A stretch of DNA of 64,000 nucleotides from contig LBQR01000003.1 of the NCBI GenBank assembly GCA_000990945.1, forward strand, positions 11,089-75,088, written 5' to 3'. The notes under the pieces were generated by a model. It was given only the letters and a program-made list of their open reading frames with translations, searched no databases and was not told where the DNA came from. This stretch comes from Candidatus Moranbacteria bacterium GW2011_GWF2_35_54 (GTDB taxonomy: Bacteria; Patescibacteriota; Minisyncoccia; Moranbacterales; UBA9337). A program made the translations under genes and the position numbers. Each line of letters starts with the position of its first letter. Position 1 is the first letter of the stretch. Shown here one piece after another: positions 9,679 to 61,048 of the stretch.

Positions 9679-9726
9679 CCCCTCTCCCCCTCTCTGAGGG
9701 GGAGATGCCGATAGGCAGAGGGGGTG
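9679..9726. repeat. GC-rich hairpin repeat, family R copy 1 (cccctctccccctc...gagggggagatgccga.aggcagagggggtg)
   Basis: One of 7 near-identical ~50-bp elements in the window. Nested stems ccccctc/gagggggag and cccctct/agagggg. Confidence 0.85.
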
Positions 9727-9857
9727 CATAAAAACATCTTTAAAATAATTTAAAAACTACTAATCAAATATATCTCAATTCTAACACTCTACGCCCCCAA
9801 AATCCAGAAAAAAATAATGTAACTATTCAGCCTTCTCCAAAACCAATCTTTCCTGCC

Positions 9858-9956
9858 GTCTCTGCGAGTAATTTCTGTACTCGGAAATTGCGTGGCAGTC
9901 TAAGTTTTAATGTAGAAATCCTGGATTGCCACGTCGGAGTACCGACTCGCAAAGAC
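9858..9956. mobile_element. MITE-like element, family D copy 1 (TIR GTCTCTGCGAG ... CTCGCAAAGAC)
   Basis: 10/11-bp terminal inverted repeats. Internal imperfect inverted repeat gtactcggaaattgcgtggcag / ctggattgccacgtcggagtac. Second copy at 17342-17452. Confidence 0.7.
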
Positions 9957-10023
9957 AAACCCTGTTTTATCTTTAGAGAAAACTGAATAATTACAAAAAT
10001 ATGTAAAAAAATTATAAAATTTA

Positions 10024-10060
10024 CTTGACTTTTGCCGTTAAAATCTATATCCTTTTATCA
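10024..10060 (+). promoter_or_regulatory. Putative sigma-70-type promoter (TTGACT ... TATATC) for the small gene at 10109
   Basis: -35-like TTGACT and -10-like TATATC seen in sequence. Spacer slightly short. Confidence 0.3.
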
Positions 10061-10108
10061 CCTAGCTCATTTGTTTATTTACCCACTTTTACAAAGGAGG
10101 TTCATCTA

Positions 10109-10405
10109 ATGCAGCAAATCACTTGTAAAAAAACCATGTATTGGCGACAGGTTCCGCACTATTCTGGCTCTCTTACTGAAAGAAGTGAGCCTGATCCAGA
10201 ACTCGTCGAAAGAGAGCAAATTACGGAAGTATTCACGGCTGGAAAAAAATATCCCATCACTATCCAAGTAGGTGGAGGTGCTTGTGGCGACGTGGATATT
10301 GCAATCAGTGCGCAAGGCAACGACGGCAAGAATTATACGATACTAGCAGTTCATGATGCTCTTCTCTCAAATCGAAATGTCTCAAATAAATTTGTTTACA
10401 ATTAA
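10109..10405 (+). CDS. Small hypothetical protein (98 aa), own RBS and terminator
   Basis: Strong SD aaaggagg 7 nt upstream of the ATG. The longer ORF start at 10025 lacks an RBS. Confidence 0.6.
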   Translation: MQQITCKKTMYWRQVPHYSGSLTERSEPDPELVEREQITEVFTAGKKYPITIQVGGGACGDVDIAISAQGNDGKNYTILAVHDALLSNRNVSNKFVYN

Positions 10406-10433
10406 ACATCTGCTCAACGAGAAATTCCCTATG

Positions 10434-10466
10434 GCCCCGAAAAAAAATCGGGGCTTTATTATTTTA
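10434..10466 (+). terminator. Intrinsic terminator (gccccga-A8-tcggggc + T-run)
   Basis: Perfect 7-bp GC stem followed by tttattatttt. Confidence 0.7.
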
Positions 10467-10545
10467 TAAAAATTTCAATTAAATTCTCTCCCCCAAACAA
10501 CTCTTCCAACTCAGCTGTTAATTTTGTTTTATCCATAAATTTTGT

Positions 10546-11172
10546 TTATATCAAAATAACTTTTTCATCTTCAATAAAAACTGCCTGCTTATCAGTTAGA
10601 GCGATTACGGATTCCTCTTTTCTTTTTTCTTTAAACTCCTGTACATTTTTTTCTTCTTCAGCGCTATAGTGCGGAGTTATAATATACGAAATTAATCCCA
10701 ATCCTGTTAAATCAATAAGATCTACGTCGTTTATATCTGCGTTACCAATTCCTGCCGCCTCAATATCTGGTCCAGCAATAATTGAACCGGCACTTACTCC
10801 GATATAAAATTTGCCACCCTTTACTGCTGAAATTAAAACTTTATCCAAACCAGTCTTTCTCATCCTATCCAAAATATAAAAAGTATTTCCCCCGCAAACA
10901 TAATAAACATCATATTCCATCAAACTAGAAAGATCTTTTTCTTCGGAAATATTTATTTCATCATGCTTGAGTCCTATTTCCCCCAGTTCTTTACGATAAT
11001 AATCCATCCACTGCCAGTCACTCTCATCTCTAATGGTGTGAATCAAGCAGACTTTTTTATCTTTTAATGTATCAAATTGAGAAATAAAAAAATCTACAAT
11101 TTTTCTGCTAGTCATCCCATCAGAAGTAAGTAATAGTTTCATAAAATTATTTTTAAATATTAACCTTTTCAT
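10546..11172 (-). CDS. Peptidase S51 (dipeptidase E/cyanophycinase-like) family protein
   Basis: LTSDG, GGNTF and VSAGS motifs typical of the S51 family. The start may be the internal MKLLLTSDG. Confidence 0.65.
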   Translation of the reverse strand: MKRLIFKNNFMKLLLTSDGMTSRKIVDFFISQFDTLKDKKVCLIHTIRDESDWQWMDYYRKELGEIGLKHDEINISEEKDLSSLMEYDVYYVCGGNTFYILDRMRKTGLDKVLISAVKGGKFYIGVSAGSIIAGPDIEAAGIGNADINDVDLIDLTGLGLISYIITPHYSAEEEKNVQEFKEKRKEESVIALTDKQAVFIEDEKVILI

Positions 11173-11285
11173 ATCTTTATTTTATCACTCTGTGCCTCCA
11201 AAATCCAGCACAAAAAAATAAACGGCAGCTTCGCATTGTTGCGATTCTGCCGTCTCAGCCAAATAAAATTATTAGGGGATTATTC

Positions 11286-12380
11286 CTAGCATGGTAAAGG
11301 AAGATAAACTCCTGACCATTTTCTCTGGCCATGGCTCTTTTTGGTAATTTTAACCAAGGTTTCTATTTTCTCTATCTCTACTCCACTTTCTCTAGCATTT
11401 GAATGAAGAAATTTTTCCACTGTCGGAGCTTCAATGGTGGGAGTGAAACTGAATTCAACTTCTCTGACACTTCCTCCTTTTAGGATAACCTTGGCGTTAT
11501 AAACACCTTCAGCGTGCTTCGACTTCTTATCTTTTGGCTTCCAAGTTCCAATAAACTTAGAACCATCTAGGAAATCAACAGCAAACTCCGTCGTCTTACC
11601 TGCTAGTAGTTCACGAAATTTATCTATTGCCTCCTGTATCCAAAGATCTTCCTCCTGCAATAATCTTGGTTTATAACCTCCACCTTTTTCCCAATAGGTG
11701 CCGTCATGCCAATAAACAATTTTCCTCTCTTCTTTTCTTCCTCCAGAACAGCAACTTTTTTCTAAAAAAGTACGCACCCCCATACAGCGCTTCACGGTGG
11801 GAATTTTTTCAAGAAAATCCCAAACAATATATTTAGCACCAAATCTAAATTCGGGATCATCTTGGATTAAATCCAAAAAAACATAATCCCCTTGGAGCAA
11901 TTGATTGCCTTTGGCATAAAACCAAGGAGTTAAAATTCCGCATTCCACTTTTCGCAAAAAACCTTTTTGCTTAAGAATATGTTCATGATCATATGAACTT
12001 ACATAATGCCTCCACGCTTTTTTTGCATTCTCTATTGTATCAAATTCAAAAAAACAAGTTTTATCGTGAGGAACGTACTGATAAACCACTGTTCCACAAC
12101 GACCATCTGGAGGATTTTTTATTTCCAGAACTTCGATGTAACTATTGCTCCCTCCCGCATACTCATGCTGAACAATGTCATATCGAGTATGTTTTTGAAA
12201 AATATCATTTTTAACTACACCCGTTATCGGCAAACTAAGAAAGTTTACCTCTTCGATAGCTTCTGCTATGCGATCAATATCATCGGGGTGAGCAGCAAAT
12301 TGAATAATTTGGCCTGAAGCTGTTACAACTTCTCTGGAAATAAAAAGATTCAAACATTCCTTCTTGCGATTATTTTTCAT
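11286..12380 (-). CDS. Hypothetical protein (364 aa); N-terminal AHPDD motif reminiscent of LmbE/PIG-L deacetylases but otherwise unrecognised
   Basis: Long ORF with no confidently recognised domain. Confidence 0.45.
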   Translation of the reverse strand: MKNNRKKECLNLFISREVVTASGQIIQFAAHPDDIDRIAEAIEEVNFLSLPITGVVKNDIFQKHTRYDIVQHEYAGGSNSYIEVLEIKNPPDGRCGTVVYQYVPHDKTCFFEFDTIENAKKAWRHYVSSYDHEHILKQKGFLRKVECGILTPWFYAKGNQLLQGDYVFLDLIQDDPEFRFGAKYIVWDFLEKIPTVKRCMGVRTFLEKSCCSGGRKEERKIVYWHDGTYWEKGGGYKPRLLQEEDLWIQEAIDKFRELLAGKTTEFAVDFLDGSKFIGTWKPKDKKSKHAEGVYNAKVILKGGSVREVEFSFTPTIEAPTVEKFLHSNARESGVEIEKIETLVKITKKSHGQRKWSGVYLPLPC

Positions 12381-12514
12381 GATTTCTCCTTCGCTTGAAT
12401 TTTATTTAAGAATTATATTTTTTAGAGAAAAATTAAACATGACAAAGAGCTTTTTTGCGTTTTCACTAGTTTACAATTTTAACATTCAGTACCCGAAAAA
12501 GCAAGTTTATAGAG

Positions 12515-13447: not shown

Positions 13448-13493
13448 ACAAAAAAACCGCTAAATTAATTAGCAGTTTTTTGTTTGATAAAGC

Positions 13494-14216: not shown

Positions 14217-14651
14217 TAAATTAATTAAACGTCTACTTATTTTTTGTCTACAAATATGTTTACTTTTAATAATTAGCTTGCCCTCTCAATTTACCCCATC
14301 TCAAGCTGAGACAAGGCACCTAGGGCTATTAAATTTCTATTCAATTGTACTATGCCAATAAAAAAATTCCTTATGGGAATTATATCTTTATGGTGCTGTC
14401 TATTATACCCTTTTTACCAAATCTCGTCAAGTTTTTTTGCTCTACAGTTAAACTTTACATTTATTAAGATAGTTGTGAAAATTTTTAAGATCTCCAACCT
14501 AAGGACATGGTCATCAATCAAAAGCCATCCGTCATCAAAGTTAAAATGTACTTCGATGACTGATTGCGGATGACAAATGGCTTTTGACTTGATTGTTTTT
14601 ATGGTTTAATGCTAAATTGTTTTAATGTTATTTTGTTATTATGTTAACGTA

Positions 14652-15998
14652 CTAAAGTGCATTAAGTTCTTCTAATATCACTTTTCTATCATTCCAGAGA
14701 ATTTTTTTATCACCCACCACCATTGATTCCTCGGCGCCCATCCCTGTTACCGCAATGATATCATCAGCTTGCGCAATATTTAAAGCAAAACGAATTGCCT
14801 CTCGCCTATCCATAATCCTCCAACAATTAACTCCTTCTTTTTTCTTATTAGAAATTTTGTCATTTCCGACAACCCCTTTAAACACTTCATTTATAATATT
14901 CTCAGGATTTTCCCTATACGGTTCATCATTAGTCACGATAACAAAATCCGCATATCGTGCCACAATCTCACCAATGATAGGCCTCTTGCCACGATCTCGC
15001 TCTCCGCAAGCGCCAAAAACTGCAATAATTCTAGCTTCGGGTTTTTTAATTTTTGCCAGTAAAGAATACAATTTTTTCAAAGCTTCAGGCGTCAATGCAA
15101 AATCCACTAAAATATTTAGCCCTTTTTCATTGGGTACATATTCCATCCTGCCAGGGACACCTTTGATTTTTTCGATAGCCTTAGCGCAAGTCTCCAAACT
15201 AATTCCTTCCGAAATTCCCACACTGATTGCCGCTAAAGCGTTTTCGATATTAAAATCTCCTACCAGATTTAAAGTGAATTTTGAACCTTGCCTGCCGGCA
15301 GGCAGGTTTTGAATTTTGAATTTTGAATAGTTTATTCCAAGTTCAATGTCTTCGGCAATAACAGGAGTTAGTTTGCAACTTGTAGTTTGTAGTTTGTAGT
15401 TTTCATTCTTTAAACTATAACCAAAAATTTCTCTAGCCTTACAGTCTAGATATTCTTCCGGTTTCTCCATATCTAAGTTTACAATCGCCGTTTCCACTTT
15501 ATCAAAAAGCTTTCTTTTGGCTTGGCGGTATTTTTTCATGGTCTTGTGATAGTCTAAATGTTCGCGCGTTACATTGGTAATTACGGCTGTTTTATAATTA
15601 ATCCCCCATACGCGATGTTGATCTAATGAATGTGAGGAAGTTTCTAAAACTAAATATTCACAGTTAGCATCCACCGCTTGCCTAATAAATTTTTGCACTG
15701 CAAAAGCTGACAATGTGGTAAAATGTGAAAGATTGGTCCATTCTTTTTCGTTAAGTTTAAAATTAATCGTCGAAGCCATGGCTACTTTTCTCGCCCCGAG
15801 TCCAGAGTTAGGATTTTCGGGGCTGTCTGCCTCTTCTAAAATTTTAGTTATTATTTGAACTGTGGTAGTTTTTCCATCCGTGCCGGTTACTCCGATAACT
15901 TTTATTTTCCTGCTTGGAAAACCAAACCAAATATTGGCCAAGATAGCTTGAAACAAATGATAAATATTTTTTAAACTTTGAGGTATTAATTTCTTCAT
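14652..15998 (-). CDS. murE: Mur ligase, MurE-like (UDP-MurNAc-tripeptide synthetase)
   Basis: GVTGTDGKTTT P-loop, LETSSHSL, NVTREHLDYH, VDFALTPEAL, GRMEY. Confidence 0.7.
   Translation of the reverse strand: MKKLIPQSLKNIYHLFQAILANIWFGFPSRKIKVIGVTGTDGKTTTVQIITKILEEADSPENPNSGLGARKVAMASTINFKLNEKEWTNLSHFTTLSAFAVQKFIRQAVDANCEYLVLETSSHSLDQHRVWGINYKTAVITNVTREHLDYHKTMKKYRQAKRKLFDKVETAIVNLDMEKPEEYLDCKAREIFGYSLKNENYKLQTTSCKLTPVIAEDIELGINYSKFKIQNLPAGRQGSKFTLNLVGDFNIENALAAISVGISEGISLETCAKAIEKIKGVPGRMEYVPNEKGLNILVDFALTPEALKKLYSLLAKIKKPEARIIAVFGACGERDRGKRPIIGEIVARYADFVIVTNDEPYRENPENIINEVFKGVVGNDKISNKKKEGVNCWRIMDRREAIRFALNIAQADDIIAVTGMGAEESMVVGDKKILWNDRKVILEELNAL
15284..15308. repeat. GC-rich palindrome (aacc-t-tgcctgcc|ggcaggcaggtt) flanked by gaattttgaa direct repeats, lying in-frame inside murE-like CDS
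   Basis: Seen in sequence. Encodes LPAGRQG flanked by duplicated SKFKIQN/SKFTLN. Confidence 0.6.
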
Positions 15999-16006
15999 AA
16001 TATAGT

Positions 16007-16093
16007 CTTCTCCCCCTCCCTCTTGCCTGCCCCGTCAGATATTTTTCTGACTGGGGTACCCAAGGGGGAGGTGCCTGAAAGGCGGAGGGGGTT
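16007..16093. repeat. Family R copy 2 (extended variant with internal ccccgtcaga...tctgactgggg hairpin)
   Basis: Shares the ctccccctccc ... gggggag ... ggcggagggggt core. Confidence 0.75.
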
Positions 16094-16096
16094 TCT

Positions 16097-16120
16097 TTTA
16101 GCACGTTAGCATATTAATGA
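16097..16120 (-). promoter_or_regulatory. Upstream motif TAATATGCTAACGTGCTAA (gene-sense), upstream of murE-like gene
   Basis: One of 7 sites of this motif in the window. Confidence 0.5.
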
Positions 16121-16139
16121 TAAAATAAAGGACTCCCTG

Positions 16140-16226
16140 TGTCATCTCGAGCGCAACGACAGTGGAGTCGAGAGATCTAACAAATTTTATTTTTTGAGTA
16201 CAAAAATATATCCGGTCGAAATGACA
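16140..16226. mobile_element. MITE-like element, family C copy 1 (TIR TGTCATCTCGAGC ... GGTCGAAATGACA)
   Basis: 11/13-bp TIRs. A second longer copy at 52830-52944 shares the core gtcatctcgagcg.aacgacagtggagtcgagagatcta. Confidence 0.7.
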
Positions 16227-16330
16227 TGCTAAATTTTAAAAACTTCCCCTTTATTCTATCCCACTTTAAAAATATTTCCAAGGAAATTTTAAAGGGCGGG
16301 AAATGACTGCTGTCATCTCCCGCCCCGTTC

Positions 16331-17156: not shown

Positions 17157-17341
17157 ATTGAGGCCCTCCTTGAGCCTGTTTTCATTGAAAAATTTCGTAT
17201 AATCCCCAAATCTATTAAGATTTTGGAGATATTTGTCAAATTTACTATTTCATATCAGTATACCATATTTGACATTAAATGTCAAATTTTGCACGGGTAA
17301 CTCTTCACTGACCCCCCCCCTTCTCATATCTTTTTTTACCC

Positions 17342-17452
17342 GTCTCTGCGAGTAATTTTTGTACTCAAAAATTGCGTGGCAGTCTATAGAATATAATATA
17401 CAATTCAATCTGGGTCCTGGATTGCCACGACGGAGTACCGTCTCGCAAAGAC
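17342..17452. mobile_element. MITE-like element, family D copy 2, inserted within a flanking perfect inverted repeat cactgacccc/ggggtcagtg
   Basis: Same TIRs as 9858-9956. Confidence 0.7.
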
Positions 17453-17662
17453 AAACCTGTTTGTGCCGTAAAGGGGTCAGTGAGGAATTACTTTGCACGG
17501 CGTAGTCTGCTGTTTTAGCTTTATCCATAGTTTCATAATAAAAACAGGGTAGCCAAAATTTTTTGACTCCCTGTCTCACTTGCATCAAAGAAATTTCTTT
17601 ATATTATTATTTTACCCGAGGTGTAGCACCTACACCTCGGGTATTATTTGAGCAAACCCCAA

Positions 17663-24669: not shown

Positions 24670-24782
24670 TTTTACCGGGATTTGCATATTTTGTCAATTT
24701 ACCGGGATTCCCGGTAAAATAAACCACATACAAAAATTCTTAATTGTCATATATTTCACTACAAATATAAAATAGTCAGATA
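24670..24782. repeat. ~110-bp direct repeat copy 1 containing 19-bp perfect palindrome TTACCGGGATTCCCGGTAA (24699-24717)
   Basis: ~85% identical to 24952-25066. Starts 10 bp upstream of the GHKL gene start codon. Confidence 0.75.
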
Positions 24783-24951
24783 CTTTTCCATGATTCTATT
24801 TATAAATAAAATTTACTATTTTATACCTCAAATAAAGCATAATCCATAGTATGCATTGAACTATGGATAAAATGTGCAATAAAATGCCATTTTGTCCTTT
24901 ATCCATAGCTTATTTCTCTATACTTATTATACTATAGAACAATTAAACACT

Positions 24952-25066
24952 TTTACCGGGATTTGTAAAAATTGTCAAATTACCGGGAATCCCGGTAAAA
25001 TCAACAAAATGTAAAAAGTCTTGACTATTGTATATTCCACTATACAATAGTCAGAATGCACTTTTT
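24952..25066. repeat. ~110-bp direct repeat copy 2 with palindrome TTACCGGGAATCCCGGTAA (24980-24998) and perfect hairpin TGACTATTGTATA-ttccac-TATACAATAGTCA (25022-25053)
   Basis: Seen in sequence. Confidence 0.75.
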
Positions 25067-26846: not shown

Positions 26847-28078
26847 TTAAAATTTTAATATTTCTTCCAATTCCTTAGTTCTTTTGTGCGGTCCAGTTAA
26901 GGCTAAATTTAATTTTTCGTTTCTAAAAATATCTTTAGCTACGCGCAAAATATCTTCTTGGGTTACTTTATCGATCTTTTTAAAAATATCTTTGGGAGTT
27001 AATATTTTTTCTTTTCTAATTTCTTGCCCTATCAAAAATGAAGCCACGGAGTCAGATGATTCCAGGCCCATTACCGATTTACCTTTTACATAATCTTTGG
27101 CTTTTTGTAGCTCTTGCGCGGTGACTTTTCTGCTGGCAATTTTCTTATATTCTTTCAAAATTGTCTCTACAGCTTTAGCTAAATTTTTATGTTCTACTCC
27201 CGCTGAAGTCGCTAGATAACCAGCCTCCTGATAAGATTCTGTACCGGTATGCACATAATAAGCCAGTCCTTGTCGCTCTCTGACATTGATGAAGAGTCGA
27301 CTACTCATATTACCTCCTAAAATAATAGAAAGCAAGGATAAGACATACTCATCTTTGTGCCCATCGGGATAAGCGCGTACTCCTAAAATTAAATGGGTTT
27401 GATCGGTTTTCTTATTTTTAATTTTTATTTGAGGTGCATTTTGTGTTTCAATTACTTTTATAACTTCTCAATTTTCCTTATCAATTTATTCTCATCTATT
27501 TTTCCAGCTATACAAACAACTGTATCGCCAGAGATATAAAATCTCTTTATATAATTAATAAAGTCATTTCTCTTTACACTCCCGATAGTTTCTTTGGTTC
27601 CGATAATTTGCCTGCCCAATTTTTGATTACCATACAAAAGACCTTCAAAAACATCATCCACACTTCGCATCGGCATATCCTCATACATATTCAATTCCTG
27701 AATAATTGTTCCACGTTCTTTATTTATTTCTTTGGTATCAAATTTGGAGTTAAGAAACATATCTGATATTACATCCAAAGTTTTATCTAAATGTTTAGCA
27801 TCGCTTTTGGCATAATAAGCCGTACTGGTTTTACCTGTAAAAGCGTTAAATTCTCCCCCAATAGCATCCAGTTCATTGGCAATTATTTGAGTGTTAGCGC
27901 GCTTCTTCGTACCCTTAAACATCATGTGCTCAATAAAGTGAGAAAGTCCCCGCTCTTCGTCGTTTTCATACCTTGATCCTACTCCCACCATCACCATCAC
28001 CGTCGCTGTTTGCGTGTCTTTCATCGGAGCAGTAATTATTCTTAATCCATTTTTTAAGGTTGTTTTTTTATAATTCAT
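26847..28078 (-). pseudogene. M16 (pitrilysin/insulinase) family zinc peptidase split into two ORFs (27458-28078 N-domain with HFIEHMMF zinc motif; 26847-27335 C-domain) in different frames
   Basis: The two pieces together span a normal M16 length. Frames differ (28078 mod 3 = 1, 27335 mod 3 = 2) with a 122-nt gap. Confidence 0.5.
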
Positions 28079-28164: not shown

Positions 28165-28360
28165 AAATATATTGTTACAATATATTGTAACTTACGCGTT
28201 TGAACTATATAGCCTTGGTTTCTAAAAAATATTATTTTTTCGAACTGCCCGCTTCGCAGTAGCTTTAGCGAGGCGAGCCGTGCGAAGCGAAAGGCGAGAA
28301 AAAATGATATTTTTCAGAAACGCATAAAACAAAAATAATATTCAAACGCGTAAGTCCTAT
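28165..28360. repeat. Composite nested palindromic structure (outer ttacgcgtttgaa/ttcaaacgcgtaa; inner tttctaaaaaatattattttttcgaac/gagaaaaaatgatatttttcagaa; core cgcttcgcagtagctttagcgaggcgagccgtgcgaagcg = family B)
   Basis: Seen in sequence. Core shared with 30797-30827 and 57518-57670. Confidence 0.65.
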
Positions 28361-29696: not shown

Positions 29697-29736
29697 TTTT
29701 AGCACGTTAGCAAAATCATGTTAGCATATTAACATT
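29697..29736 (-). promoter_or_regulatory. Upstream motif (gene-sense aatgttaatatgctaacatgattttgctaacgtgctaaaa)
   Basis: Site of the recurrent TAATATGCTAAC[A/G]TG motif. Points toward 28809-29621. Confidence 0.5.
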
Positions 29737-29880
29737 AAAACATAAGAACAATGTAATAATTAAGTTAAAAGTCACCAAAGTAAAGATTTATGATTTATGA
29801 AAAAATATTTATTATTCTCAAATTCTCAAATTCCTAAACTCGTCAATGGGTCAATATTTTAACAAATAAAAAAATATTAT

Positions 29881-30760: not shown

Positions 30761-30840
30761 TCCCCTCTCCCCCTCCTTGAGGGGGAGATGCCGACCCGCT
30801 TCGCAGTAACTTTAGCGAGGCGAGTAGGCAGAGGGGGTGG
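30761..30840. repeat. Family R copy 3 with a family-B element (cccgcttcgcagtaactttagcgaggcgag) nested inside
   Basis: R arms tttcccctctccccctccttgagggggagatgccga ... ggcagagggggtgg interrupted by a B core. Lies between convergent genes. Confidence 0.75.
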
Positions 30841-32580: not shown

Positions 32581-32620
32581 GGCATGCAACATATTAACAT
32601 TTTAACATGTTAACAAGCAA
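32581..32620 (-). promoter_or_regulatory. Upstream motif variant (gene-sense aaaatgttaatatgttgcatg) abutting the UbiA-like gene start
   Basis: Variant of the recurrent motif. Confidence 0.4.
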
Positions 32621-32726
32621 ATAACTTAACACTGAAACAAATTATTATTCGTCAACAGTCATTGAATCATCGAGTCATGAAACATGAAAACAATATAACA
32701 ATTTAGCAATATACCAATTTGATATT

Positions 32727-36930: not shown

Positions 36931-36981
36931 CATGCTACAATGCTAATATGCTGAAATGTTAATATGTTAACGTGAATAACT
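36931..36981 (+). promoter_or_regulatory. Upstream motif (gctaatatgctgaaatgttaatatgttaacgtgaataact) ending at dnaX ATG
   Basis: Variant of the recurrent motif, adjacent to the start codon. Confidence 0.5.
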
Positions 36982-41534: not shown

Positions 41535-41822
41535 TTAATTGGCGGGATTTTTAGGAGCGCGAGTCTGGCTGATGAGACAAATGTTTCGAAAAGTAACCGT
41601 TTTGCCGTCTTCTCCGCTTTTGGTATTTTCTGTTATTCCGAAAGAATAAGTATTACCAATAGCTACGCCTAATTTCTCAAAATCTGTTTGCGCTCGACTG
41701 ACCTGACCGTCTCGTTTAGTTTGAAAAAAAGAATAAAAGTTGCCTCCAGCTTTGATAGCTACTCGACCATTTTCCACTTTGATATCCTCTACTGTCAAAT
41801 CCATAAATTTTATATCACTCAT
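41535..41822 (-). CDS. Small hypothetical protein (95 aa) sharing the structured leader with the Pif1 gene
   Basis: ORF begins immediately after conserved leader copy B. Confidence 0.5.
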   Translation of the reverse strand: MSDIKFMDLTVEDIKVENGRVAIKAGGNFYSFFQTKRDGQVSRAQTDFEKLGVAIGNTYSFGITENTKSGEDGKTVTFRNICLISQTRAPKNPAN

Positions 41823-41915
41823 TTTTTATTTACCCCCCATTAAATAACAAAGCTTACTTCGATTTAACGGGGTAAACCGTCAAATTGTAATAATTCACAT
41901 TATTTAACTGGGGTG
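41823..41915 (-). promoter_or_regulatory. Conserved structured 5' leader (copy B)
   Basis: Aligns with 2783-2876: cattttttatttacccccc-attaaat ... atttaacggggtaaacc..caaattg ... atttaactgggg. Confidence 0.5.
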
Positions 41916-49690: not shown

Positions 49691-49740
49691 GTTGTTTTAT
49701 TTCTTTTTATGTTTATTTGCTTTAATGCTATTTTGTTTTT

Positions 49741-51084
49741 ATGTTTTATGTTAAACTTATTTTTGTAAGAGTTTATTTTTCACCTTTTATTATGCACGTT
49801 CTAAACATTCTCACAACTTCATCTGATACTTTTTCCTTGATCGCTTATTTCATCATTTTTTTGGTAGCTCTTTTTGAGTCCATTCCGATGTTTGGATTTT
49901 TTATCCCCGGCCAAATTGTGGCTGTAACGGCCGGACTAATAGCTAAAGTTGGTTCCTTAGATATTGTCATTGTGATAATTGTCTTATTTCTGGGCGCAGT
50001 CGCGGGAGATTTAATCGGATATCTTTTAGGGAAAAAATATGGAGAAAATTTTATTATTAAATACGGCAAATATTTTTTTCTCAAAAAAGAAAACTTTGAA
50101 AAAACTCGCAACTTAGTTAATGAACACACTGGCAAAACTATTATCATCGGGCGATTTAACTCTGTTACCCGCGCTTTTGCTCCTTTTACCGCCGGCTCCG
50201 TAGGCATTCCTTTCTCTAAATTCATTCTTTATGACATTTTGGGCGGTATCTTTTGGGCCCTATCTTTTGCGATGCTCGGCTATATTTTCGGCAATAATTA
50301 TAAAGCTATCAGTAATTATTTTGGAGAATTTATCCTTATCGCCATCCTTATCGGTGCGCTAATTATTTATCTATACAAAAAAATAAATAAAAAAAGGCGA
50401 ATTTTTGATCGCCGCCATCTTTATATTTTACTAATCAATCTTTTTTCTCTCTATGTATTTTTTAGAATGCTGGATAATTTTGTCGAACAAGAGCTTCTCG
50501 TCAGCTGGGATAAATGGATAAACTCTCATATTCAAATACTTTGGAGCCCTTTCTTAAATAAACTAATGATATTTACTACCAATTTGGGTGGCGCCACCTT
50601 TCTAATCATTGCTTCCATAATTCTTTTGGCCTTTTTCATCTCAAAAAAGAAATGGCGCTACTCTACTCTTTTAATCTTATCCTTGGCAGGAGGACAACTA
50701 CTCCAAGTTTTAACCAAACACCTAATTGGCCGAGAACGCCCACTTGACGCGCTCATCCAAGCTTCCGGCTTTAGTTTGCCCAGTGGTCACGCTACCAGAA
50801 TTGCGATATTTTTTGCTCTTTTAATTTATTATTTTAAAAATCATCTCAAAAATTCCTACTTAAAGTATTTCCTCATTACGCTTTGTTTTTTTATTATTTT
50901 AAGTGTAGGTTTTAGTCGTATTTATCTCAGTGTCCATTGGTTTACTGATGTTATTGCTGGGTTTGCACTGGGAATTTTTTGGCTTACTTTCCTCATCCTA
51001 ACACTTGAAGTAGTTTCAACAGTCTTTAAAGAAAAAATAACTAAATTAAAAAATTACCTTAATAAAAACTCTAGAAGTTTATAA
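49741..51084 (+). CDS. DedA-family membrane protein fused to PAP2 (undecaprenyl-diphosphatase-like) phosphatase
   Basis: DedA core GFFIPGQIVAVTAGL ... GRFNSVTRAFAPFTAG. PAP2 motifs KHLIGRERP, PSGH, SRIYLSVHWFTDV. Alternative start at 49789. Confidence 0.7.
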   Translation: MFYVKLIFVRVYFSPFIMHVLNILTTSSDTFSLIAYFIIFLVALFESIPMFGFFIPGQIVAVTAGLIAKVGSLDIVIVIIVLFLGAVAGDLIGYLLGKKYGENFIIKYGKYFFLKKENFEKTRNLVNEHTGKTIIIGRFNSVTRAFAPFTAGSVGIPFSKFILYDILGGIFWALSFAMLGYIFGNNYKAISNYFGEFILIAILIGALIIYLYKKINKKRRIFDRRHLYILLINLFSLYVFFRMLDNFVEQELLVSWDKWINSHIQILWSPFLNKLMIFTTNLGGATFLIIASIILLAFFISKKKWRYSTLLILSLAGGQLLQVLTKHLIGRERPLDALIQASGFSLPSGHATRIAIFFALLIYYFKNHLKNSYLKYFLITLCFFIILSVGFSRIYLSVHWFTDVIAGFALGIFWLTFLILTLEVVSTVFKEKITKLKNYLNKNSRSL

Positions 51085-51575: not shown

Positions 51576-52775
51576 GGCTTCTATTGGGCTTAAATTAGCC
51601 GCTCTTCGTGCTGGATAGAAACCAAAAATTATTCCTACCGCAGCTGAAACTCCGAAAGAAAGTAAGACTGAAGAAAGAGAAATACTTGAAGATAAGCTAA
51701 AGAAAACCGTTAGCAGATAAGAAGCCACAAATCCCAAAATTACTCCAGTCACTCCCCCAATAAAAGTTAATGTTATAGCTTCAGCTAAAAATTGCATATT
51801 GATGTAAAACTTTCTGACTCCCACTGCTTTACGTAAGCCGATTTCTCTAGTTCTTTCAGTTACAGTAGTAAGCATCATATTCATAATGCCGATTCCTCCT
51901 ACTAAAAGAGAGATGCCCGCAATTGAAGAAAGCAAAATAGTAATAGTCCCAGTAATACTGGAAGCGGTAGAAATAATTTCATTTTGATTCATGATTCTAA
52001 AATCAGCGTCATCAGTACTGGCAATTTTATGAGTTTCTAAGAGGACAGCCTGAATATCTTCTTGAGCCTGCGTCATAGCATCTTGGGTTTCTACGGTAAT
52101 ATTTATATTGCTAATATAGTCATTTCCGGCTAAATAATTTTGAGAGGTTTTCATTGGAACATAAACTACATCATCTTGATTATTAAAACCGCTTCCTCCT
52201 TTAGCTGTGGTTACTCCGATTACTTGAAAAATGACATTATTGATTCTAATCGTTTGCCCGACTGGATTAGCCTCTGTGCCAAAAAGAGATTCACTGGTAT
52301 CCGGTCCGATTACGGCCACCTTGGCAGAGCTTCTTACTTGATTTTCACTAAAAAACAAACCACTATCCAAAGTTACATTTTTTACCATCGCATAATCATC
52401 CGTCGTTCCGATAACTTGAGTTCGAGTATTATTATTCTTGGCTGTAATTTGATAATTACCCGTTACCGATGGAGCGATAGCTTTAATATTATCCACTTTA
52501 TCTTTAATAGCTGACACATCCTCCTCAGTTAAGGTTTGCGCGCTACCTGAGCTTTGCCTGACGCCACCGACACTCTGTGAACCAGGCATAATCATAATTA
52601 AATTAGAGCCGATCGACTCTATTTGAGTTTCGATAGATTTCTTTGATCCCTGACCAATTCCCACCATTGTAATTACTGAGGCAATTCCAATTACAATTCC
52701 CAAAATCGTAAGTCCGGAGCGAACCTTATTGCCCATCAGCGACCATATTACTTCTTGTATTAAATCTTTAAACAT
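51561..52775 (-). CDS. ABC transporter permease, FtsX/MacB-type (YknZ-like)
   Basis: N-terminal TM, large extracytoplasmic domain, 3 C-terminal TM helices with FtsX signature. Confidence 0.75.
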   Translation of the reverse strand: MFKDLIQEVIWSLMGNKVRSGLTILGIVIGIASVITMVGIGQGSKKSIETQIESIGSNLIMIMPGSQSVGGVRQSSGSAQTLTEEDVSAIKDKVDNIKAIAPSVTGNYQITAKNNNTRTQVIGTTDDYAMVKNVTLDSGLFFSENQVRSSAKVAVIGPDTSESLFGTEANPVGQTIRINNVIFQVIGVTTAKGGSGFNNQDDVVYVPMKTSQNYLAGNDYISNINITVETQDAMTQAQEDIQAVLLETHKIASTDDADFRIMNQNEIISTASSITGTITILLSSIAGISLLVGGIGIMNMMLTTVTERTREIGLRKAVGVRKFYINMQFLAEAITLTFIGGVTGVILGFVASYLLTVFFSLSSSISLSSVLLSFGVSAAVGIIFGFYPARRAANLSPIEALRYE

Positions 52776-52811
52776 ATTAGCACGTTAGCATATTAGCATA
52801 TTAACAATGGA
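52776..52811 (-). promoter_or_regulatory. Upstream motif (gene-sense gttaatatgctaatatgctaacgtgctaat) abutting permease ATG
   Basis: Recurrent motif. Confidence 0.5.
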
Positions 52812-52829
52812 ACAAAAAAATTATTCGTG

Positions 52830-52944
52830 TGTCATCTCGAGCGAAACGACAGTGGAGTCGAGAGATCTAATAAATTTTATATACAATTAAGATTTCTCCA
52901 CGCATAAATTTATGAGTACATAAATTTATTTGGTCGAAATGACA
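52830..52944. mobile_element. MITE-like element, family C copy 2
   Basis: Same TIRs and core as 16140-16226, with extra internal segment. Confidence 0.7.
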
Positions 52945-52989
52945 TACACCTAGAACATTCACAATTTTTAATTATTCATTTTTAATTTT

Positions 52990-56545: not shown

Positions 56546-56589
56546 CACCCTCTCCCCCTCCCTGAGGGGGAGAATTAAAGAGGGGGTGA
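56546..56589. repeat. Family R copy 4 (tcaccctctccccctccctgagggggagaattaaagagggggtgaa)
   Basis: Seen in sequence. Confidence 0.8.
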
Positions 56590-57174: not shown

Positions 57175-57230
57175 TACTAAATCTTTACATGAATGTACTT
57201 ATATTATACGCCTAAGAACGAAATTGTTTG

Positions 57231-57290
57231 CATTAAATCATGTTAGCATATTAACATTTTAGCATGAAAACAAATAAACATGTTCCCTCT
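57231..57290 (-). promoter_or_regulatory. Upstream motif (gene-sense tgctaaaatgttaatatgctaacatgattt) 60-110 bp upstream of ECF sigma gene
   Basis: 24-mer aatgttaatatgctaacatgattt identical to the site at 29697-29736. Confidence 0.5.
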
Positions 57291-57333
57291 CCACCTCTTT
57301 GAGGGGGAGATGTCCGACAGGACAGAGGGGGTG
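57284..57333. repeat. Family R copy 5
   Basis: ttccctctccacctctttgagggggagatgtccgacaggacagagggggtg. Confidence 0.8.
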
Positions 57334-57517: not shown

Positions 57518-57670
57518 AAAGTTTTAGCGAGTGAGAGTTAGATTTATTTATTTTAGGAGTACGTGTGGCAGTTTTTTTGTAACCTTTTTTTGCTGTCAAA
57601 AAAAGTTAGTGAGAAAAATATAATAGCAAAGTCTTATGATTTAAACTTATCCACTCGCCTCGCTAAAACT
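57518..57670. repeat. Hairpin element with family-B arms (agttttagcgagtgagag ... ccactcgcctcgctaaaact) enclosing ~110 bp
   Basis: Arms are reverse complements (tttagcgag[g/t][c/g]gag core). Confidence 0.6.
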
Positions 57671-57702
57671 CTGACTAAGCGGACGGACGGGTAATTAATA
57701 GG

Positions 57703-57735
57703 AAAAATAAAAAAATCCGCGTTAGGCGGATTTTT
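57703..57735 (-). terminator. rplL intrinsic terminator (atccgc-ctaa-gcggat + T-run, minus strand)
   Basis: Seen in sequence immediately after rplL stop. Confidence 0.7.
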
Positions 57736-57753
57736 TGTATATTGAAAGTAAAA

Positions 57754-58158
57754 TTATTTTAATTCAACTTTTGCGCCAGCTTCTTCCAATTTCTTTTTCA
57801 TTTCTTCAGCTTCAGCTTTGGCAACTTTTTCTTTAATCATTTTTGGAGCAGCGTCAACGATATCTTTTGACTCTTTTAATCCAAGTCCGGTAATTTCACG
57901 AACTACTTTAATAACATTGATTTTTTTGTCTCCAGCAGATGTAAGCTCTACATCAAATTGACTCTTTTCCTCAACTGCAGCGGCTTCAGCTGCAGGAGCA
58001 GCTCCCATCATCATTGGAGCAGCAGCGCTAACACCAAATTTGTCCTCTAGAACTTTCACTAATTCTGAAAGATCCAAAACACTCATTTTTTCGATCTCTG
58101 CTACTAGTTTTTCAAATTTTGCAGGAACAACGACTTCTTCTTTTTTTTCTTCTGTCAT
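57754..58158 (-). CDS. rplL: 50S ribosomal protein L7/L12
   Basis: C-terminal domain [30 protein letters not shown]...[18 protein letters not shown]. Confidence 0.9.
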
Positions 58159-58273
58159 ATGTTTAGTTCACGGTTCTTAGTTTGTAGTTCACAGTTCTAC
58201 CCACCAAAAACGTTTATTTGATTATTTAAATTAATTTTTTAACAATTTAACCTTTTAGCAATTTAACAATTTA

Positions 58274-58792
58274 TTAAGCTTTACTGTCAGCGATGGCTTT
58301 AACTACATTTACCAACCCTCTCATATTGCCCGCCAATACGTTAACGAATCCTGAGATTGGAGCATTCAAAGTTCCTACCAATTTAGCCAACATCTCTTCT
58401 TTGCTTGGAAGTTTGGCTAATGCATCTACTTCTTGAGCACTCATACCTTTAACTCCCAAAACTCCTCCCAAAATTTTCAAATTTTCATTCTCTTTGGCAA
58501 ATTTGCTTAAAATTCTTGCTGGTGCCACTTCATCATTATCTGAAATAGTAATGGCTAGTTGTCCGGCTAAGCTTTTTACATCTACCTCAATCTCAGCATT
58601 TTTCAAAGAAATCTCTATTAGATTTTTTTTAATAACATTAAGATTGGTACCCTCTTTCTTCAATCGACTTTTCAATTCATTGATATCGTTAGTTTTAACT
58701 CCACGATAATCCGCGAAAACGATAGCTTTGGAAGACTTGATTTTCTCGGTCAAATTTTTGACAATGTCTTCTTTTTGTAATCTTGTTAACAT
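58274..58792 (-). CDS. rplJ: 50S ribosomal protein L10
   Basis: Overall L10 pattern and position upstream of rplL. Confidence 0.8.
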   Translation of the reverse strand: MLTRLQKEDIVKNLTEKIKSSKAIVFADYRGVKTNDINELKSRLKKEGTNLNVIKKNLIEISLKNAEIEVDVKSLAGQLAITISDNDEVAPARILSKFAKENENLKILGGVLGVKGMSAQEVDALAKLPSKEEMLAKLVGTLNAPISGFVNVLAGNMRGLVNVVKAIADSKA

Positions 58793-58798
58793 ATTTTT

Positions 58799-58826
58799 TT
58801 CCTCCGTCAGCTGACGGATGGAGGAC
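58799..58826 (-). promoter_or_regulatory. Hairpin (palindrome tccgtcag|ctgacgga) overlapping the GGAGG Shine-Dalgarno of rplJ; candidate L10-leader-type autoregulatory structure
   Basis: Seen in sequence. Functional assignment by analogy only. Confidence 0.3.
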
Positions 58827-59027
58827 TATTAATTATTTTATAACTTATGCAATTAAATTTAGCTTCATCTAATAAAAAATTCTGCTTTTAATTGCAGAAC
58901 TTGATAAAAACAACTTAAAAAAAATTGTTTCTTATCCTCGGCAGGTCTTATTTTGGATGCCTACTGTCTGCGGATTATTTAATTTACTTAACTAATATAG
59001 CGCTTATTTCCCTGCTTGTCAATAAAA

Positions 59028-59375
59028 TTACTCAGCTTTAGCTTCCTCAGTAACTGGAGATTCTAAAGTAGTAGCAACCGCTGGAGCTTCTTCTGTCTTG
59101 ACTTCTTCTACTTTTTTCATCTTAACAATTCTCTTTTTGGCTTCGATAACTTTTTGGGCTACCAACAAATTGTGCACGGAGTCTGAAGCTTGAGCGCCTG
59201 TTCCTAGCCAATATTGAATTCTTTCATTTTTAAAAACACCTTTTTTCTGGGCTGGATCCCAACTTCCCAAGATTTCGATGTGTTTTCCGGTTGGAGTAGC
59301 TGAATTCTCTTGAACTACAATTCTAAATTGAGGTTTATTTTTTCTTCCTACTCTTGAAAATCTAATAACTATCAT
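59028..59375 (-). CDS. rpsP: 30S ribosomal protein S16 with C-terminal extension
   Basis: MIVIRFSRVGRKNKPQFRIVV...GSWDP. Confidence 0.85.
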   Translation of the reverse strand: MIVIRFSRVGRKNKPQFRIVVQENSATPTGKHIEILGSWDPAQKKGVFKNERIQYWLGTGAQASDSVHNLLVAQKVIEAKKRIVKMKKVEEVKTEEAPAVATTLESPVTEEAKAE

Positions 59376-59591
59376 AAAAACAAAAATATAGCTTACCTAC
59401 TGTTTTTCGAGTATTTAAGCACCATTTATAAATTATTTTATTGTCTATACCTGAGCTTACAGTATTTATTTAAATATGTCAAGAATTAAAATATCACTGT
59501 CAATCTTAGTATCCACCCCTCTCATCTATTTACTATTTTCCCTTATAGCTATATCTTTAAAATAAAGTAAAACGGCAAAAATAATCAACTA

Positions 59592-60995
59592 ATGTCCATG
59601 CTAGAAATTCTCACTAAATTACTTTTCTTATATTTACCTTTCCAAATCGCTCTTAATCCAGCTGAAGGTTTTGATTTGGCGTCGGTGAGAATTATTATTC
59701 CCTTATTATTTATTGCTTGGCTGATTGACGGACTAAAAAATAAAAAAATAATCATTCCTAATAATTTAACTTTTTTCTTACTAATTTCTTTTTTATTTTT
59801 AACTTCTTTTTCTTTATTTTTTGCTGAGAATTTTGTTTGGGGGTTACGGAAGTTAATCTTTCTATTTTCGATTTTTCCGCTCTTTTTTGTTGTCCATGCT
59901 ATCTTCTCATCTAATCAAGCTAAAAAACTCTCTTTGCTTAAATTCACAGCTCTGGGGGGCGTTTTTACAGCACTTCTCGGAATAATTCAATTTTTATTAC
60001 AACTTATCATTCCTTTAAATAAACTGTACTCTGCTTGGGCGATTATCATTGTTCCTTTTTTGGGAAATTCTTTTTCGCAGGCGGTACTTACTAATCCCAG
60101 TTGGCTGGTAAACGTCGGCGGACACACCCTGCTTCGAGCCACTGCTTTTTTCCCTGATCCGCACATGCTCGCTTTTTATCTTAACATCACTGGTTTGATT
60201 TCTTTGGGCATTTATTTTTCCCAACAAGAATATGACCTACGCACCTCCCCTCTCCCCCTCCTTGAGGGGGAGATGCCGACAGGCAGAGGGGGTGGAAAAT
60301 TAACCATTTATTTTTCTAAACATTTAAGTCCTAAAGAAATAAAAAATAAGAAGAATTATTATTTGTTTTTTTCAATCATAATATTTCTCGCTAGCTTTCT
60401 AACTTTTTCCCGCGGCGGTTATCTAGGCTTAATTGCCGGATTATTGTTTTTTGGATTTTTTACCTTCAAATCCAAATTAAAATATTTTTTTAACAACGCT
60501 AAAAGAGTAATTTCATTGATTTTTATTTTGATAACATTTAGTTTGATTCTTGCCATCCCTAATCCTATCACTAACCGCCTCACTTCAAGTTTCGATTTAT
60601 CCGAAGGTTCAAATACTGGCCGAATCGAAACTTGGAAGCAATCTTTAGAAATAATCAAAGCAAACCCCACCTTAGGAGTGGGCTTGGGAAATTATTCTCT
60701 AAGCATCAAACCCTCAGCCAATTATCGCGAACCTATTTATTCCCATAACACTTTTCTGGATATCGCTGCTGAAACTGGGATTTTAAATGCTCTTGTCTGG
60801 CTACTTTTATTTTTATTTAGTATTATTAATTTTACTCGGGGATTTATTATAAATAATGATTTTATCGATCTAGCCCTAGTCTCCGCTCTAGTTTCATTAT
60901 CTATCCACTCTCTTTTTGAAACTGCTATATTTTCAGTGCATATCCTGCCACTTATTATTTTAATTCTCAGCCTTAATAACTCAAAACAAAATTAG
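59592..60995 (+). CDS. O-antigen ligase (WaaL/Wzy_C) family membrane protein carrying an in-frame family-R repeat insertion
   Basis: Wzy_C motifs FSRGGYLGLIAGLLFF and SHNTFLDIAAETGILNAL. Repeat R6 translated as RTSPLPLLEGEMPTGRGGGK. Confidence 0.65.
   Translation: MSMLEILTKLLFLYLPFQIALNPAEGFDLASVRIIIPLLFIAWLIDGLKNKKIIIPNNLTFFLLISFLFLTSFSLFFAENFVWGLRKLIFLFSIFPLFFVVHAIFSSNQAKKLSLLKFTALGGVFTALLGIIQFLLQLIIPLNKLYSAWAIIIVPFLGNSFSQAVLTNPSWLVNVGGHTLLRATAFFPDPHMLAFYLNITGLISLGIYFSQQEYDLRTSPLPLLEGEMPTGRGGGKLTIYFSKHLSPKEIKNKKNYYLFFSIIIFLASFLTFSRGGYLGLIAGLLFFGFFTFKSKLKYFFNNAKRVISLIFILITFSLILAIPNPITNRLTSSFDLSEGSNTGRIETWKQSLEIIKANPTLGVGLGNYSLSIKPSANYREPIYSHNTFLDIAAETGILNALVWLLLFLFSIINFTRGFIINNDFIDLALVSALVSLSIHSLFETAIFSVHILPLIILILSLNNSKQN
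60244..60295. repeat. Family R copy 6, located inside CDS 59592-60995 without breaking the frame
   Basis: cctcccctctccccctccttgagggggagatgccgacaggcagagggggtgg. Confidence 0.85.
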
Positions 60996-60996
60996 C

Positions 60997-61048
60997 ACCC
61001 TCTCCACCTTGTACTCAAGGGGGAGATGTCCAGTAGGACAGAGGGGGT
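60997..61048. repeat. Family R copy 7 (intergenic between the two WaaL-like genes)
   Basis: caccctctccaccttgtactcaagggggagatgtccagtaggacagagggggtg. Confidence 0.8.

Follow-up and report, generated by a model that had tools for sequence, protein, structure and literature searches.

A dispersed mirror repeat with a structured loop in a Candidatus Moranbacteria genome and its likeness to the BoxC/PIT/TM triplex repeats

A 64,000-nt stretch of the genome of Candidatus Moranbacteria bacterium GW2011_GWF2_35_54 (contig LBQR01000003.1, positions 11,089 to 75,088; hereafter the window) carries seven copies of a short repeat with a G+C content of ~65%, compared to ~35% for the window. The copies share one anatomy: a pyrimidine block, a complementary purine block and a second purine block that is the mirror image of the first, in most cases with a small hairpin between the two purine blocks. 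The parts of the repeat covary, it is present or absent between relatives, it is widely distributed among bacteria, it occurs in-frame within genes and it shows a strong strand bias. Our best reading (probability roughly 0.6) is that of a dispersed, non-coding selfish repeat that forms structure at the DNA level and represents a hairpin-bearing variant of the BoxC/PIT/TM class II intrastrand-triplex repeats.

Copies of the repeat in the window and their common architecture

Copies were sought with pattern searches and with a profile hidden Markov model (HMM) built from five copies, and the number expected by chance was taken from dinucleotide shuffles. The pattern matched at 9680, 30763, 56548, 57285, 60248 and 60998, always on the + strand, with 0.00 matches expected; the core GGGGGAGATGCCGACAGGCAGAGGGGG and the 5' arm CCCTCTCCMCCTY...GGGGGAG were found at the sites listed in the initial annotation, again with 0.00 expected. 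The divergent second copy was recovered at 16005-16095 by the profile HMM as a weak partial match (E = 0.24), and the same search returned no further full-length copy in the window. The seven repeats that had been proposed are thus real, lie where they had been placed and are all on the + strand (7/7), while their description as near-identical was generous, the gapless identity to the first copy being 61-91%. The sequences of copies c4-c7 are identical in three independent assemblies (JGI, NCBI, ENA) and are therefore not assembly artefacts.

Read 5' to 3', the element consists of a pyrimidine block (Y), a 3-nt loop (loop 1), the complementary purine block (R), a mini-hairpin of the type TGYC..GRCA (loop 2) and the mirror-image purine block (RH). 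The three blocks of each copy, 10-11 nt long, were threaded into base triads according to the purine-motif rules C-G*G, T-A*A and T-A*T; in every one of the seven copies 8-10 of the 10-11 triads are canonical. In c1 (9679-9726), Y is TCTCCCCCTC (9683-9692), R is GAGGGGGAGA (9696-9705), the loop-2 hairpin is TGCCGATAGGC and RH is AGAGGGGGTG (9717-9726), and 10/10 triads are canonical. The same score is reached by c6 (60244-60294; Y 60251-60260, R 60264-60273, hairpin TGCCGACAGGC, RH 60285-60294). In the divergent c2 (16007-16093), with Y CCTCCCTCTT (16015-16024), R AAGGGGGAGG (16062-16071) and RH GGAGGGGGTT (16084-16093), 9/10 triads are canonical and the three blocks covary at both ends, a T-A*A triad being replaced by C-G*G and a C-G*G triad by T-A*T. 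Since the R block opens with GA, the mirror rule predicts a TG opposite to it, and a conserved TG, otherwise unexplained, is indeed present at the 3' end of the element. Loop 1 measures 3-6 nt in six of the seven copies; loop 2 measures 11-41 nt in six and is TTA in c4 only.

The general form CCCTCTCCCCCTCC-ttga-GGGGGAGATGCCGAcaGGCAGAGGGGGTG given in the initial annotation describes c1, c3 and c6. It does not hold for c5 and c7, whose second hairpin is GTCC..GGAC, for c4, which has ATTAA in its place, or for the divergent c2 with its additional hairpin in loop 1 (16030-16056). RNA and DNA folding yielded one common three-way junction for every copy on either strand, composed of an outer stem (CCCTCT/AGAGGG), a first hairpin (CCCCCTC/GAGGGGG) and a second hairpin (GCC/GGC or GTCC/GGAC), with z-scores mostly between -2.4 and -5.3. 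The extra sequences of c2 and c3 are accommodated in the terminal loops of hairpin 1 and hairpin 2, respectively. The folding was performed with ViennaRNA, which covers Watson-Crick and G-U pairs only. Because the MAFFT alignment split the C-run of the 5' arm, the analysis relied on anchored regular expressions and on direct counts of pairs and triads.

The copies occupy different genomic contexts. c1 is found upstream of mltG and contains, at 9729, the start codon ATG of the long open reading frame (ORF; 8665-9729, minus strand) of this gene, in agreement with the earlier proposal that the 5' extension of this ORF is built from the repeat. The extension is probably a phantom, because the YceG domain begins only at residue 70. 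c2 is flanked by a TTAGCAT-type array on one side and by the start of a Mur-ligase gene (ATG at 15998) on the other. c3 (30761-30839) directly follows the ksgA stop codon between convergent genes, and its loop-2 hairpin is extended by a nested 29-nt repeat (30796-30824). The short form c4 (56546-56588) separates an ECF sigma gene from its neighbour; it has no loop-2 hairpin, and its stem runs on into the flanking TTTTCACCC/GGGTGAAAA. c5 (57284-57333), in which Y carries a C>A change, is positioned in the spacer that separates rplL from the sigma gene, directly upstream of the promoter region of the latter and ~375 nt past the rplL intrinsic terminator. c6 resides inside the first of two Wzy_C genes, and c7 (60997-61049) begins right after the stop codon of this gene and leaves 11 nt to the start codon of the second gene (ATG at 61061).

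Mirror symmetry of the purine blocks and the loop-2 hairpin

The mirror rule was examined in 188 pyrimidine/purine hairpins of loci fetched from other genomes and metagenomic contigs (numbered L below). These hairpins do not fit the search pattern, and their third block is therefore an unbiased sample. A mirror was found in 79 cases and a direct repeat in 32 (p = 9e-6), and near-perfect mirrors outnumbered near-perfect direct repeats by 52 to 18; one such mirror is GGAGGAGAGGG/GGGAGAGGAGG in L022. Because templated processes yield direct or inverted repeats and not mirror repeats, the excess speaks for selection acting on a structure in which the purine strand is read both ways.

The loop-2 hairpin of the fetched loci comprised 43 distinct sequences, all of the form TG(T/C)C..G(A/G)CA. 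The stems are 4-9 bp long, with a mean of 6.0 compared to 2.6 after shuffling of the interior, and 40 of the 43 sequences are paired down to a loop of <=6 nt. Since so many different long stems stand on a constant base, and since the hairpin is present in the long-block type of the element as well, it is a modular, covarying insert. A long loop 2 is thus a closed hairpin, and the geometry of the element may equal that of the short-loop class described below; the hairpin also allows the single strand to fold as a three-way junction.

DNA or RNA level

Three copies (c3, c6 and c7) are oriented in the sense direction of the local genes and three (c1, c2 and c4) in the antisense direction; most genes of the window are on the minus strand. 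None of the copies c4-c7 was called as terminator-like, while the canonical intrinsic terminator of rplL (57710-57736, minus strand), which serves as the reference for a real terminator, was called. The element is not followed by a U-tract, and its flanks are A-rich on the + strand. No Rfam family was matched at the gathering or E-value threshold; the best candidate, anti-hemB, reached 20 bits against a threshold of 49.5 through a superficial match to the first hairpin and was rejected. In addition, RNA reportedly does not form triplexes of the purine motif (Holder et al. 2015, PMC4666352). Given the mixed sense and antisense copies, the position of c5 in a spacer between terminator and promoter, and the lack of a terminator-like copy, of an Rfam match and of purine-motif triplexes in RNA, a DNA-level reading fits best.

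A structured RNA, i.e. a cis-regulator, mRNA stabiliser, terminator or small RNA built on the three-way junction, would explain why all copies share this junction with z-scores down to -5.3, why the hairpin covaries and why insertions are placed in terminal loops as in many RNAs. It would also agree with c2, which lies in a 5' untranslated region and whose complement puts GGGAGGGGGAG ~8 nt before the ATG. We nevertheless hold this explanation to be very improbable: in addition to the observations above, PIT elements have neither promoter nor terminator activity (PMC4666352), and the mirror symmetry of the purine blocks is needed by no RNA fold. The initial annotation had left the choice between a structured RNA motif and an element resembling repetitive extragenic palindromic (REP) sequences or miniature inverted-repeat transposable elements (MITEs); a dispersed REP/MITE-like family is what we find, and the RNA motif is not borne out.

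Distribution across bacteria

The family is not confined to the window, and at least 114 loci in 185,579 species genomes match the pattern, spread over many phyla, in addition to metagenomic contigs. The matches listed include Alphaproteobacteria (Pannonibacter, Stappia, Breoghania, Mesorhizobium, Sphingomonas, Sandaracinobacter and others), Cupriavidus, Anaeromyxobacter, Verrucomicrobiota, Chloroflexota/Dehalococcoidia, Deinococcus, Abditibacteriota, Ignavibacteria and several candidate phyla, as well as members of the candidate phyla radiation (CPR), namely Saccharibacteria, Paceibacterota, Moraniibacteriota and Magasanikbacteria. The part of the element that the pattern leaves free falls into several types among these listed matches: the hairpin ATG(T/C)C..G(A/G)CAG as in the window, short loops resembling GGGTTGGGG, by which both purine blocks are lengthened, GTTG, and AATTAAA as in c4. 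The 41-nt core of c4 recurs in a Moraniibacteriota locus (L044) with one base different 5' of the CCCTCT block. A scan of metagenomes with a CPR-type pattern returned 12 AT-rich loci, and in 2.9 million viral contigs the pattern was present in only 3.

Inverted doublets occur in some genomes, e.g. L038, L046 and L054. In the Breoghania locus L038 (754-896) two hairpin-type copies with different hairpin stems form a tail-to-tail inverted doublet 33 nt apart, which resembles the inverted TM pairs of E. coli. Hairpin-type copies are also found just upstream of pheS in both an Abditibacterium genome (L004 131-188) and a CPR-like contig (L130 3576-3630), be it by coincidence or as a preferred site.

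Copies inside protein genes

The gene that hosts c6 encodes a WaaL-like protein (Wzy_C, PF04932; 59592-60995, + strand). It is intact with 467 amino acids, and the protein is 100% identical to that of Candidatus Moranbacteria bacterium GW2011_GWE1_35_17 (CPR/Parcubacteria). As previously noted, c6 is translated as ...RTSPLPLLEGEMPTGRGGGK... without a stop codon or a change of frame. We compared the protein with 14 orthologues (58-83% identity): the segment YDLRTSPLPLLEGEMPTGRGGGKLTIYFSKHLSPKE is absent from all of them, and its site is a length-variable linker between two conserved blocks, so that a native origin of the peptide is not borne out. The DNA alignment with a sister species (L115) shows a clean gap corresponding to an in-frame insertion of 108 nt, or 36 codons (60225-60332, + strand), composed of c6 and of AT-rich flanks that partly duplicate the target, with CATTTATTTTTC.. 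on both sides and an imperfect 17-nt duplication around c6. No copy of the element was found anywhere in the syntenic 12 kb of the sister species, and the site of c7 is occupied there by an unrelated 130-nt spacer.

The linker that accepted c6 is an insertion hotspot. Other orthologues (alignment columns 215-280) carry unrelated inserts at this place (...GNPRIREDDNNEITQ..., ...LTPNRGLGRH... and ...SAPAWRSGRH...), which, judging from their sequences, look like translated GC-rich repeats of other families.

In-frame copies are not restricted to this gene. In Sphingomonas (L030) two insertions are located inside glyS and add ...PSPPSGGEGWGEGG..., the protein still matching PF02092 with E = 2.5e-182. 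CPR-like contigs contain copies inside dinB, where the IMS domain is split into two stretches, inside the gene of RNase HII, which is split as well, and inside a HypF-like gene. Such genic copies occur in both orientations relative to the host gene. Apparent in-frame insertions in L130 (pheS) and L129 (HAD) were rejected, as these ORFs extend upstream of the true start codons.

Gain, loss and retention of copies

Four relatives (L122-L125) were compared around the sigma gene. The distance from the sigma stop codon to the next ATG is 5-28 nt in the relatives and 120 nt in the window; because of this difference c4 with its A/T-extended stem is an insertion. Copies c4, c6 and c7 are absent in relatives. 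The c5 site presents a different picture: the window, L124 (a Moraniibacteriota genome of 1.27 Mb) and L122 all have an element that abuts AAACAAATAAACAT at the identical nucleotide, with the hairpin GTC-TCAC-GAC in L124 and GCC-GACA-GGC in L122 (partly masked). L123 retains a remnant that has the nested repeat of c3 in its hairpin, and L125 has none. From the retention of c5 across species and the absence of c4, c6 and c7 in relatives it follows that some copies are old and evolve with compensatory change and that others are recent.

The claim that c3 harbours a second repeat family is correct, since the 29 nt recur as a stand-alone copy (CCGCTTCGCAGTAGCTTTAGCGAGGCGAG; 28249-28277, + strand) with one mismatch. 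Recent and repeated nesting was not substantiated: the composite recurs as a unit in L133 and L123, and it has therefore been propagated or inherited as such. It is a propagating or inherited variant and no proof of recent local nesting. In L133 the composite is intact and directly follows a putative ksgA ORF (3538-4197, named from one RrnaAD match). The nested repeat (CCGCTTCGCAGTARCTTTAGCGAGGCGAG) is accordingly seen alone at 28249-28277, within c3, and in the loop-2 hairpins of L123 (~9690-9730) and L133 (4778-4808).

Orientation relative to GC skew

The GC skew of the + strand is negative in every 2-kb bin and the cumulative skew falls monotonically, from which it follows that the whole window lies on one replichore. 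The Y-R-RH strand coincides with the strand of negative GC skew in 7/7 copies of the window. A profile search of the 12 AT-rich metagenomic loci gave 18 copies, 17 of which are on the strand with negative skew (-0.08 to -0.24); counted by contig group, the orientation is the same in 10/10. Window and metagenomic copies together amount to 24/25, the 18 including the redundant contigs L129/L134/L136 and L133/L135. In 109 single-hit genome loci among the matches listed, which are mostly GC-rich with weak skew, the ratio was 70 to 39 (Wilcoxon p = 0.01). The sole copy of wrong orientation is the ksgA-linked orthologue of c3 in L133, which we take for an inherited copy whose surroundings have the opposite skew. 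A truncation of this copy (L133 4744) with loss of the third block was considered and discarded, its sequence being a full c3-type composite beside the putative ksgA ORF. Since c3, c6 and c7 sit by genes of the + strand, the bias tracks skew and not gene direction. With GC skew as a proxy, leading-strand synthesis uses the purine-rich strand, which is capable of the triplex, as its template. The complementary strand, a pyrimidine-motif version that would require protonated cytosines, is the template of the lagging strand.

Uniform orientation is most simply explained by selection, and orientation-specific insertion would give the same pattern. The element could also be a DNA site with a host function polar to replication (pausing of forks, orienting of segregation or binding of a conserved protein) that is spread by selection and not by selfishness. 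The uniform orientation relative to GC skew, the maintenance of c5 at one position in three species with structure-preserving changes and the conservation of the block sequences across phyla would be in line with such a site. We consider it quite improbable, because the density and positions of the copies differ sharply between close relatives, copies land in genes, the orientation bias is weak in GC-rich genomes, no candidate protein is known and the E. coli members of the class have no pattern of position or function (PMC4666352).

Insertion features and transposase genes

The flanks of the seven copies and the empty sites of c4 and c6 followed no rule in terms of a target-site duplication or insertion motif; only the 17-nt duplication at c6 and A/T stem extensions of variable length were seen. 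The 8-mer GACCTACG near c4 and c6 was rejected as a shared insertion signal, as it is expected by chance in 64 kb.

A miniature element derived from REP/REPIN or IS200/IS605 elements, whose hairpin is recognised in trans by an HUH transposase resembling RAYT (REP-associated tyrosine transposase) and inserted into the lagging-strand template, would create the strong strand bias directly in the insertion step. The invariant hairpin base ATG(T/C)C..G(A/G)CAG with its free stem sequence is as expected for a hairpin recognised by a protein, and the inverted doublets, the differing presence between close relatives and a G+C content far above that of the host genome point in the same direction. No Pfam call for a transposase, RAYT or integrase was, however, obtained among the window ORFs with a match (several short ORFs have no family match) or among the 25 listed of the 109 Pfam families matched by 69 ORFs flanking hairpin-type copies; none of these families is matched by more than two members, and no gene family is enriched beside the elements in this set. 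A GTAG-type head and a recognisable target motif or duplication are lacking, the element spans many phyla whereas lineage specificity is the norm for REP sequences, the mechanism has no use for mirror-image purine blocks, and viral contigs hardly ever carry the pattern. We therefore judge a transposase-driven origin to be unlikely. The messy duplication at c6 and the replaced spacer at c7 fit the local instability reported for the class to which we compare the element next.

Comparison with known repeats

The class was named BoxC first, then PIT elements (Hoyne et al. 2000) and then TM motifs (PMC4666352), with work by Bachellier et al. dating from the 1990s. Its members are class II purine-motif intrastrand triplexes with the consensus CCCTCNCCC N3-6 GGGNGAGGG N3 GGGNGAGGG (Holder et al. 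2015, PMC4666352). In this study 3,610 TM motifs were counted in 262 proteobacterial genomes and many G/C-rich motifs in cyanobacteria, sequence variability was raised around the copies, inverted pairs occurred and no link to mobile elements was seen; the copies in E. coli are always intergenic, with no strand bias and no pattern of position or function. The triplex of the TM motif is stable in vitro as judged by circular dichroism and nuclear magnetic resonance (PMC4666352). The loops of the class are limited to 1-6 nt in the ITxF finder and to 0-10 nt in Hoyne et al. (PMC4666352).

The repeat of the window resembles these elements in the order of its blocks (C-rich pyrimidine, complementary purine, second purine in mirror register), in being G/C-rich, multi-copy and mostly intergenic with some inverted pairs, and in combining local instability with the absence of a link to a transposase. 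It differs in its blocks, TCTCCCCCTC/GAGGGGGAGA instead of CCCTCNCCC/GGGNGAGGG, and in its loop 2, a covarying hairpin of 11-20 nt instead of 3 nt, only c4 having a short TTA loop. Its host is an AT-rich CPR bacterium, some copies are genic and in-frame, and the strand bias is strong, whereas E. coli copies are always intergenic and unbiased; genic copies here and elsewhere contradict intergenic location as a property of the class. In the broad sense the element belongs to the class by block order, mirror third block and G/C-rich multi-copy over-representation, while its loop is longer than the class allows. As it has neither the short loop nor the strict E. coli consensus, it is not BoxC in the strict sense.

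The strict TM(ECO) pattern has 0 matches in the window and is present in 7 fetched loci including the CPR-like contig L130. Strict TM(ECO) and hairpin-type elements thus share loci, and the two forms coexist. A textbook TM(ECO)/BoxC-type motif, CCCTCGCCCTTTGGGAGAGGGTTGGGGTGAGGG, is located at 1633-1665 of L130, a contig with 35% G+C, in the same orientation as a hairpin-type copy 2 kb away. Our literature search returned no paper linking CPR bacteria with triplex, REP or MITE repeats, and queries with literal DNA and peptide strings of the element gave nothing relevant; it was with GGGAGAGGGTTAGGG, a string resembling the E. coli element, that Holder et al. 2015 was found.

Two further systems were considered. 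Like the present element, REP/REPIN sequences are short, GC-rich, hairpin-forming, dispersed intergenic repeats with inverted doublets in some genomes. They consist of an imperfect palindrome of 20-40 nt with a GTAG-type tetranucleotide head, are normally lineage-specific and are typically found flanking the gene of a RAYT, a Y1 HUH enzyme. In contrast, no copy of our element has a GTAG-type head, no RAYT was called nearby, its third mirror block has no REP counterpart and it crosses phyla. The Rickettsia palindromic elements (RPE), reportedly described by Ogata and colleagues in 2000, are said to be 100-150 bp long, specific to Rickettsia and inserted in-frame in intact genes. The likeness lies in a palindromic repeat that enters intact protein genes in-frame and adds a peptide in a tolerated loop; a length of ~50 nt, another host and the purine mirror set our element apart from the RPE as described. 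The analogy would hold for behaviour and not for membership.

Other repeats and loci in the window

Arrays with a period of 8 nt (TTAGCAT / ATTAACAT) are located at 14609-14650, 16096-16127, 29697-29760, 32590-32624, 36932-36973, 49709-49750, 52769-52823 and 57235-57281. They lie just upstream of many genes beside -35/-10-like boxes and may serve this genome as a common operator or as a promoter module of the UP-like type. A second GC-rich hairpin repeat, GTGTCATCTCGAGCGMAACGACAGTGGAGTCGAGAGATCT, occupies 16116-16227 and 52806-52945 with conserved flanks (84-86% identity), and a repeat of ~105 nt containing ..GATTGCCACG.CGGAGTACCG.CTCGCAAAGAC.. is found at 9856-9961 and 17340-17457 (94-95% identity) as another GC-rich structured family. 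Two 92-nt copies with 80% identity and the perfect palindrome TTTACCGGGAWTCCCGGTAAA (24670-24761 and 24951-25042) precede the gene of a histidine-kinase-like ATPase. A 91-nt repeat (2784-2874 and 41822-41912, 78% identity) lies directly upstream of both the gene at 1040-2782 and the gene of a 2273-aa Ig-like surface protein, and may be a shared 5' leader or promoter.

A Peptidase_M16 gene is seemingly split into the ORFs 26847-27335 and 27458-28078 (minus strand), with ~60 positions of the M16_C profile missing across a 122-nt gap that contains short repeats; this may be a disrupted gene or another insertion. The only stretch of elevated G+C content (43-45%) in the window contains the gene of a 1459-aa protein with collagen repeats and a Peptidase_S74 (endosialidase chaperone) domain (3660-8039, minus strand), reminiscent of a phage tail-fibre gene, beside a PIF1-like helicase gene (1040-2782, minus strand).

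Discussion

Several observations weigh against our assignment of the repeat to the triplex class. Watson-Crick pairing is by itself enough for each copy to fold into a stable three-way junction, and because the conserved 5' CCC is paired in the junction model and unpaired in the triplex model, the triplex may not be the relevant conformer. A loop 2 of 11-41 nt exceeds the limits that define the class, and the low complexity of the purine and pyrimidine blocks makes alternative pairings hard to tell apart. In E. coli, Holder et al. did not detect the triplex in vivo (PMC4666352). The identity of the blocks across phyla is partly forced by the search pattern, GC skew is only a proxy for the direction of replication, and copies on one contig are not independent. 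Neither a mechanism of insertion nor a target-site duplication could be established from the flanks of the seven copies and the empty sites of c4 and c6.

From the features of the repeat we infer how it may fold in vivo, why its orientation is biased and how it may spread. A very stable fold, possibly an intrastrand triplex, would be formed whenever the element strand becomes single-stranded. The element would act, if at all, at the DNA level and behave as selfish or neutral DNA. It would reach new sites including coding sequence, where only frame-preserving copies would survive; its arrival would be accompanied by local indels and duplications, and some copies would be long-lived. On the lagging-strand template a purine triplex or hairpin would stall replication, leading to selection for uniform orientation.

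A bolder version is doubtful, namely that of a pan-bacterial, horizontally spreading hairpin-bearing triplex repeat whose orientation is enforced by the replication block of a lagging-strand purine triplex. If true, it would provide the first genome-scale in vivo footprint of intrastrand triplex formation, and the repeat would time and again have supplied essential proteins (WaaL-like, GlyS, DinB, RNase HII) with new peptide loops.

Repeats of the BoxC/PIT/TM class have been known since the 1990s without an established function, mechanism of spread or in vivo evidence for the triplex. New here are a structured-loop variant common to CPR bacteria, Alphaproteobacteria, Chloroflexota, Deinococcus and others, a strong preference, in AT-rich CPR genomes, for one orientation with respect to GC skew, as expected if the fold of the single strand matters in replication, and the repeated in-frame survival of copies inside essential genes. 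For CPR annotations the consequences are phantom ORFs, false N-terminal extensions such as that of mltG and odd peptide inserts (…PLPLLEGEMPTGRGG…). Together, the strand bias and the in-frame copies make the old question of the function of this class testable.

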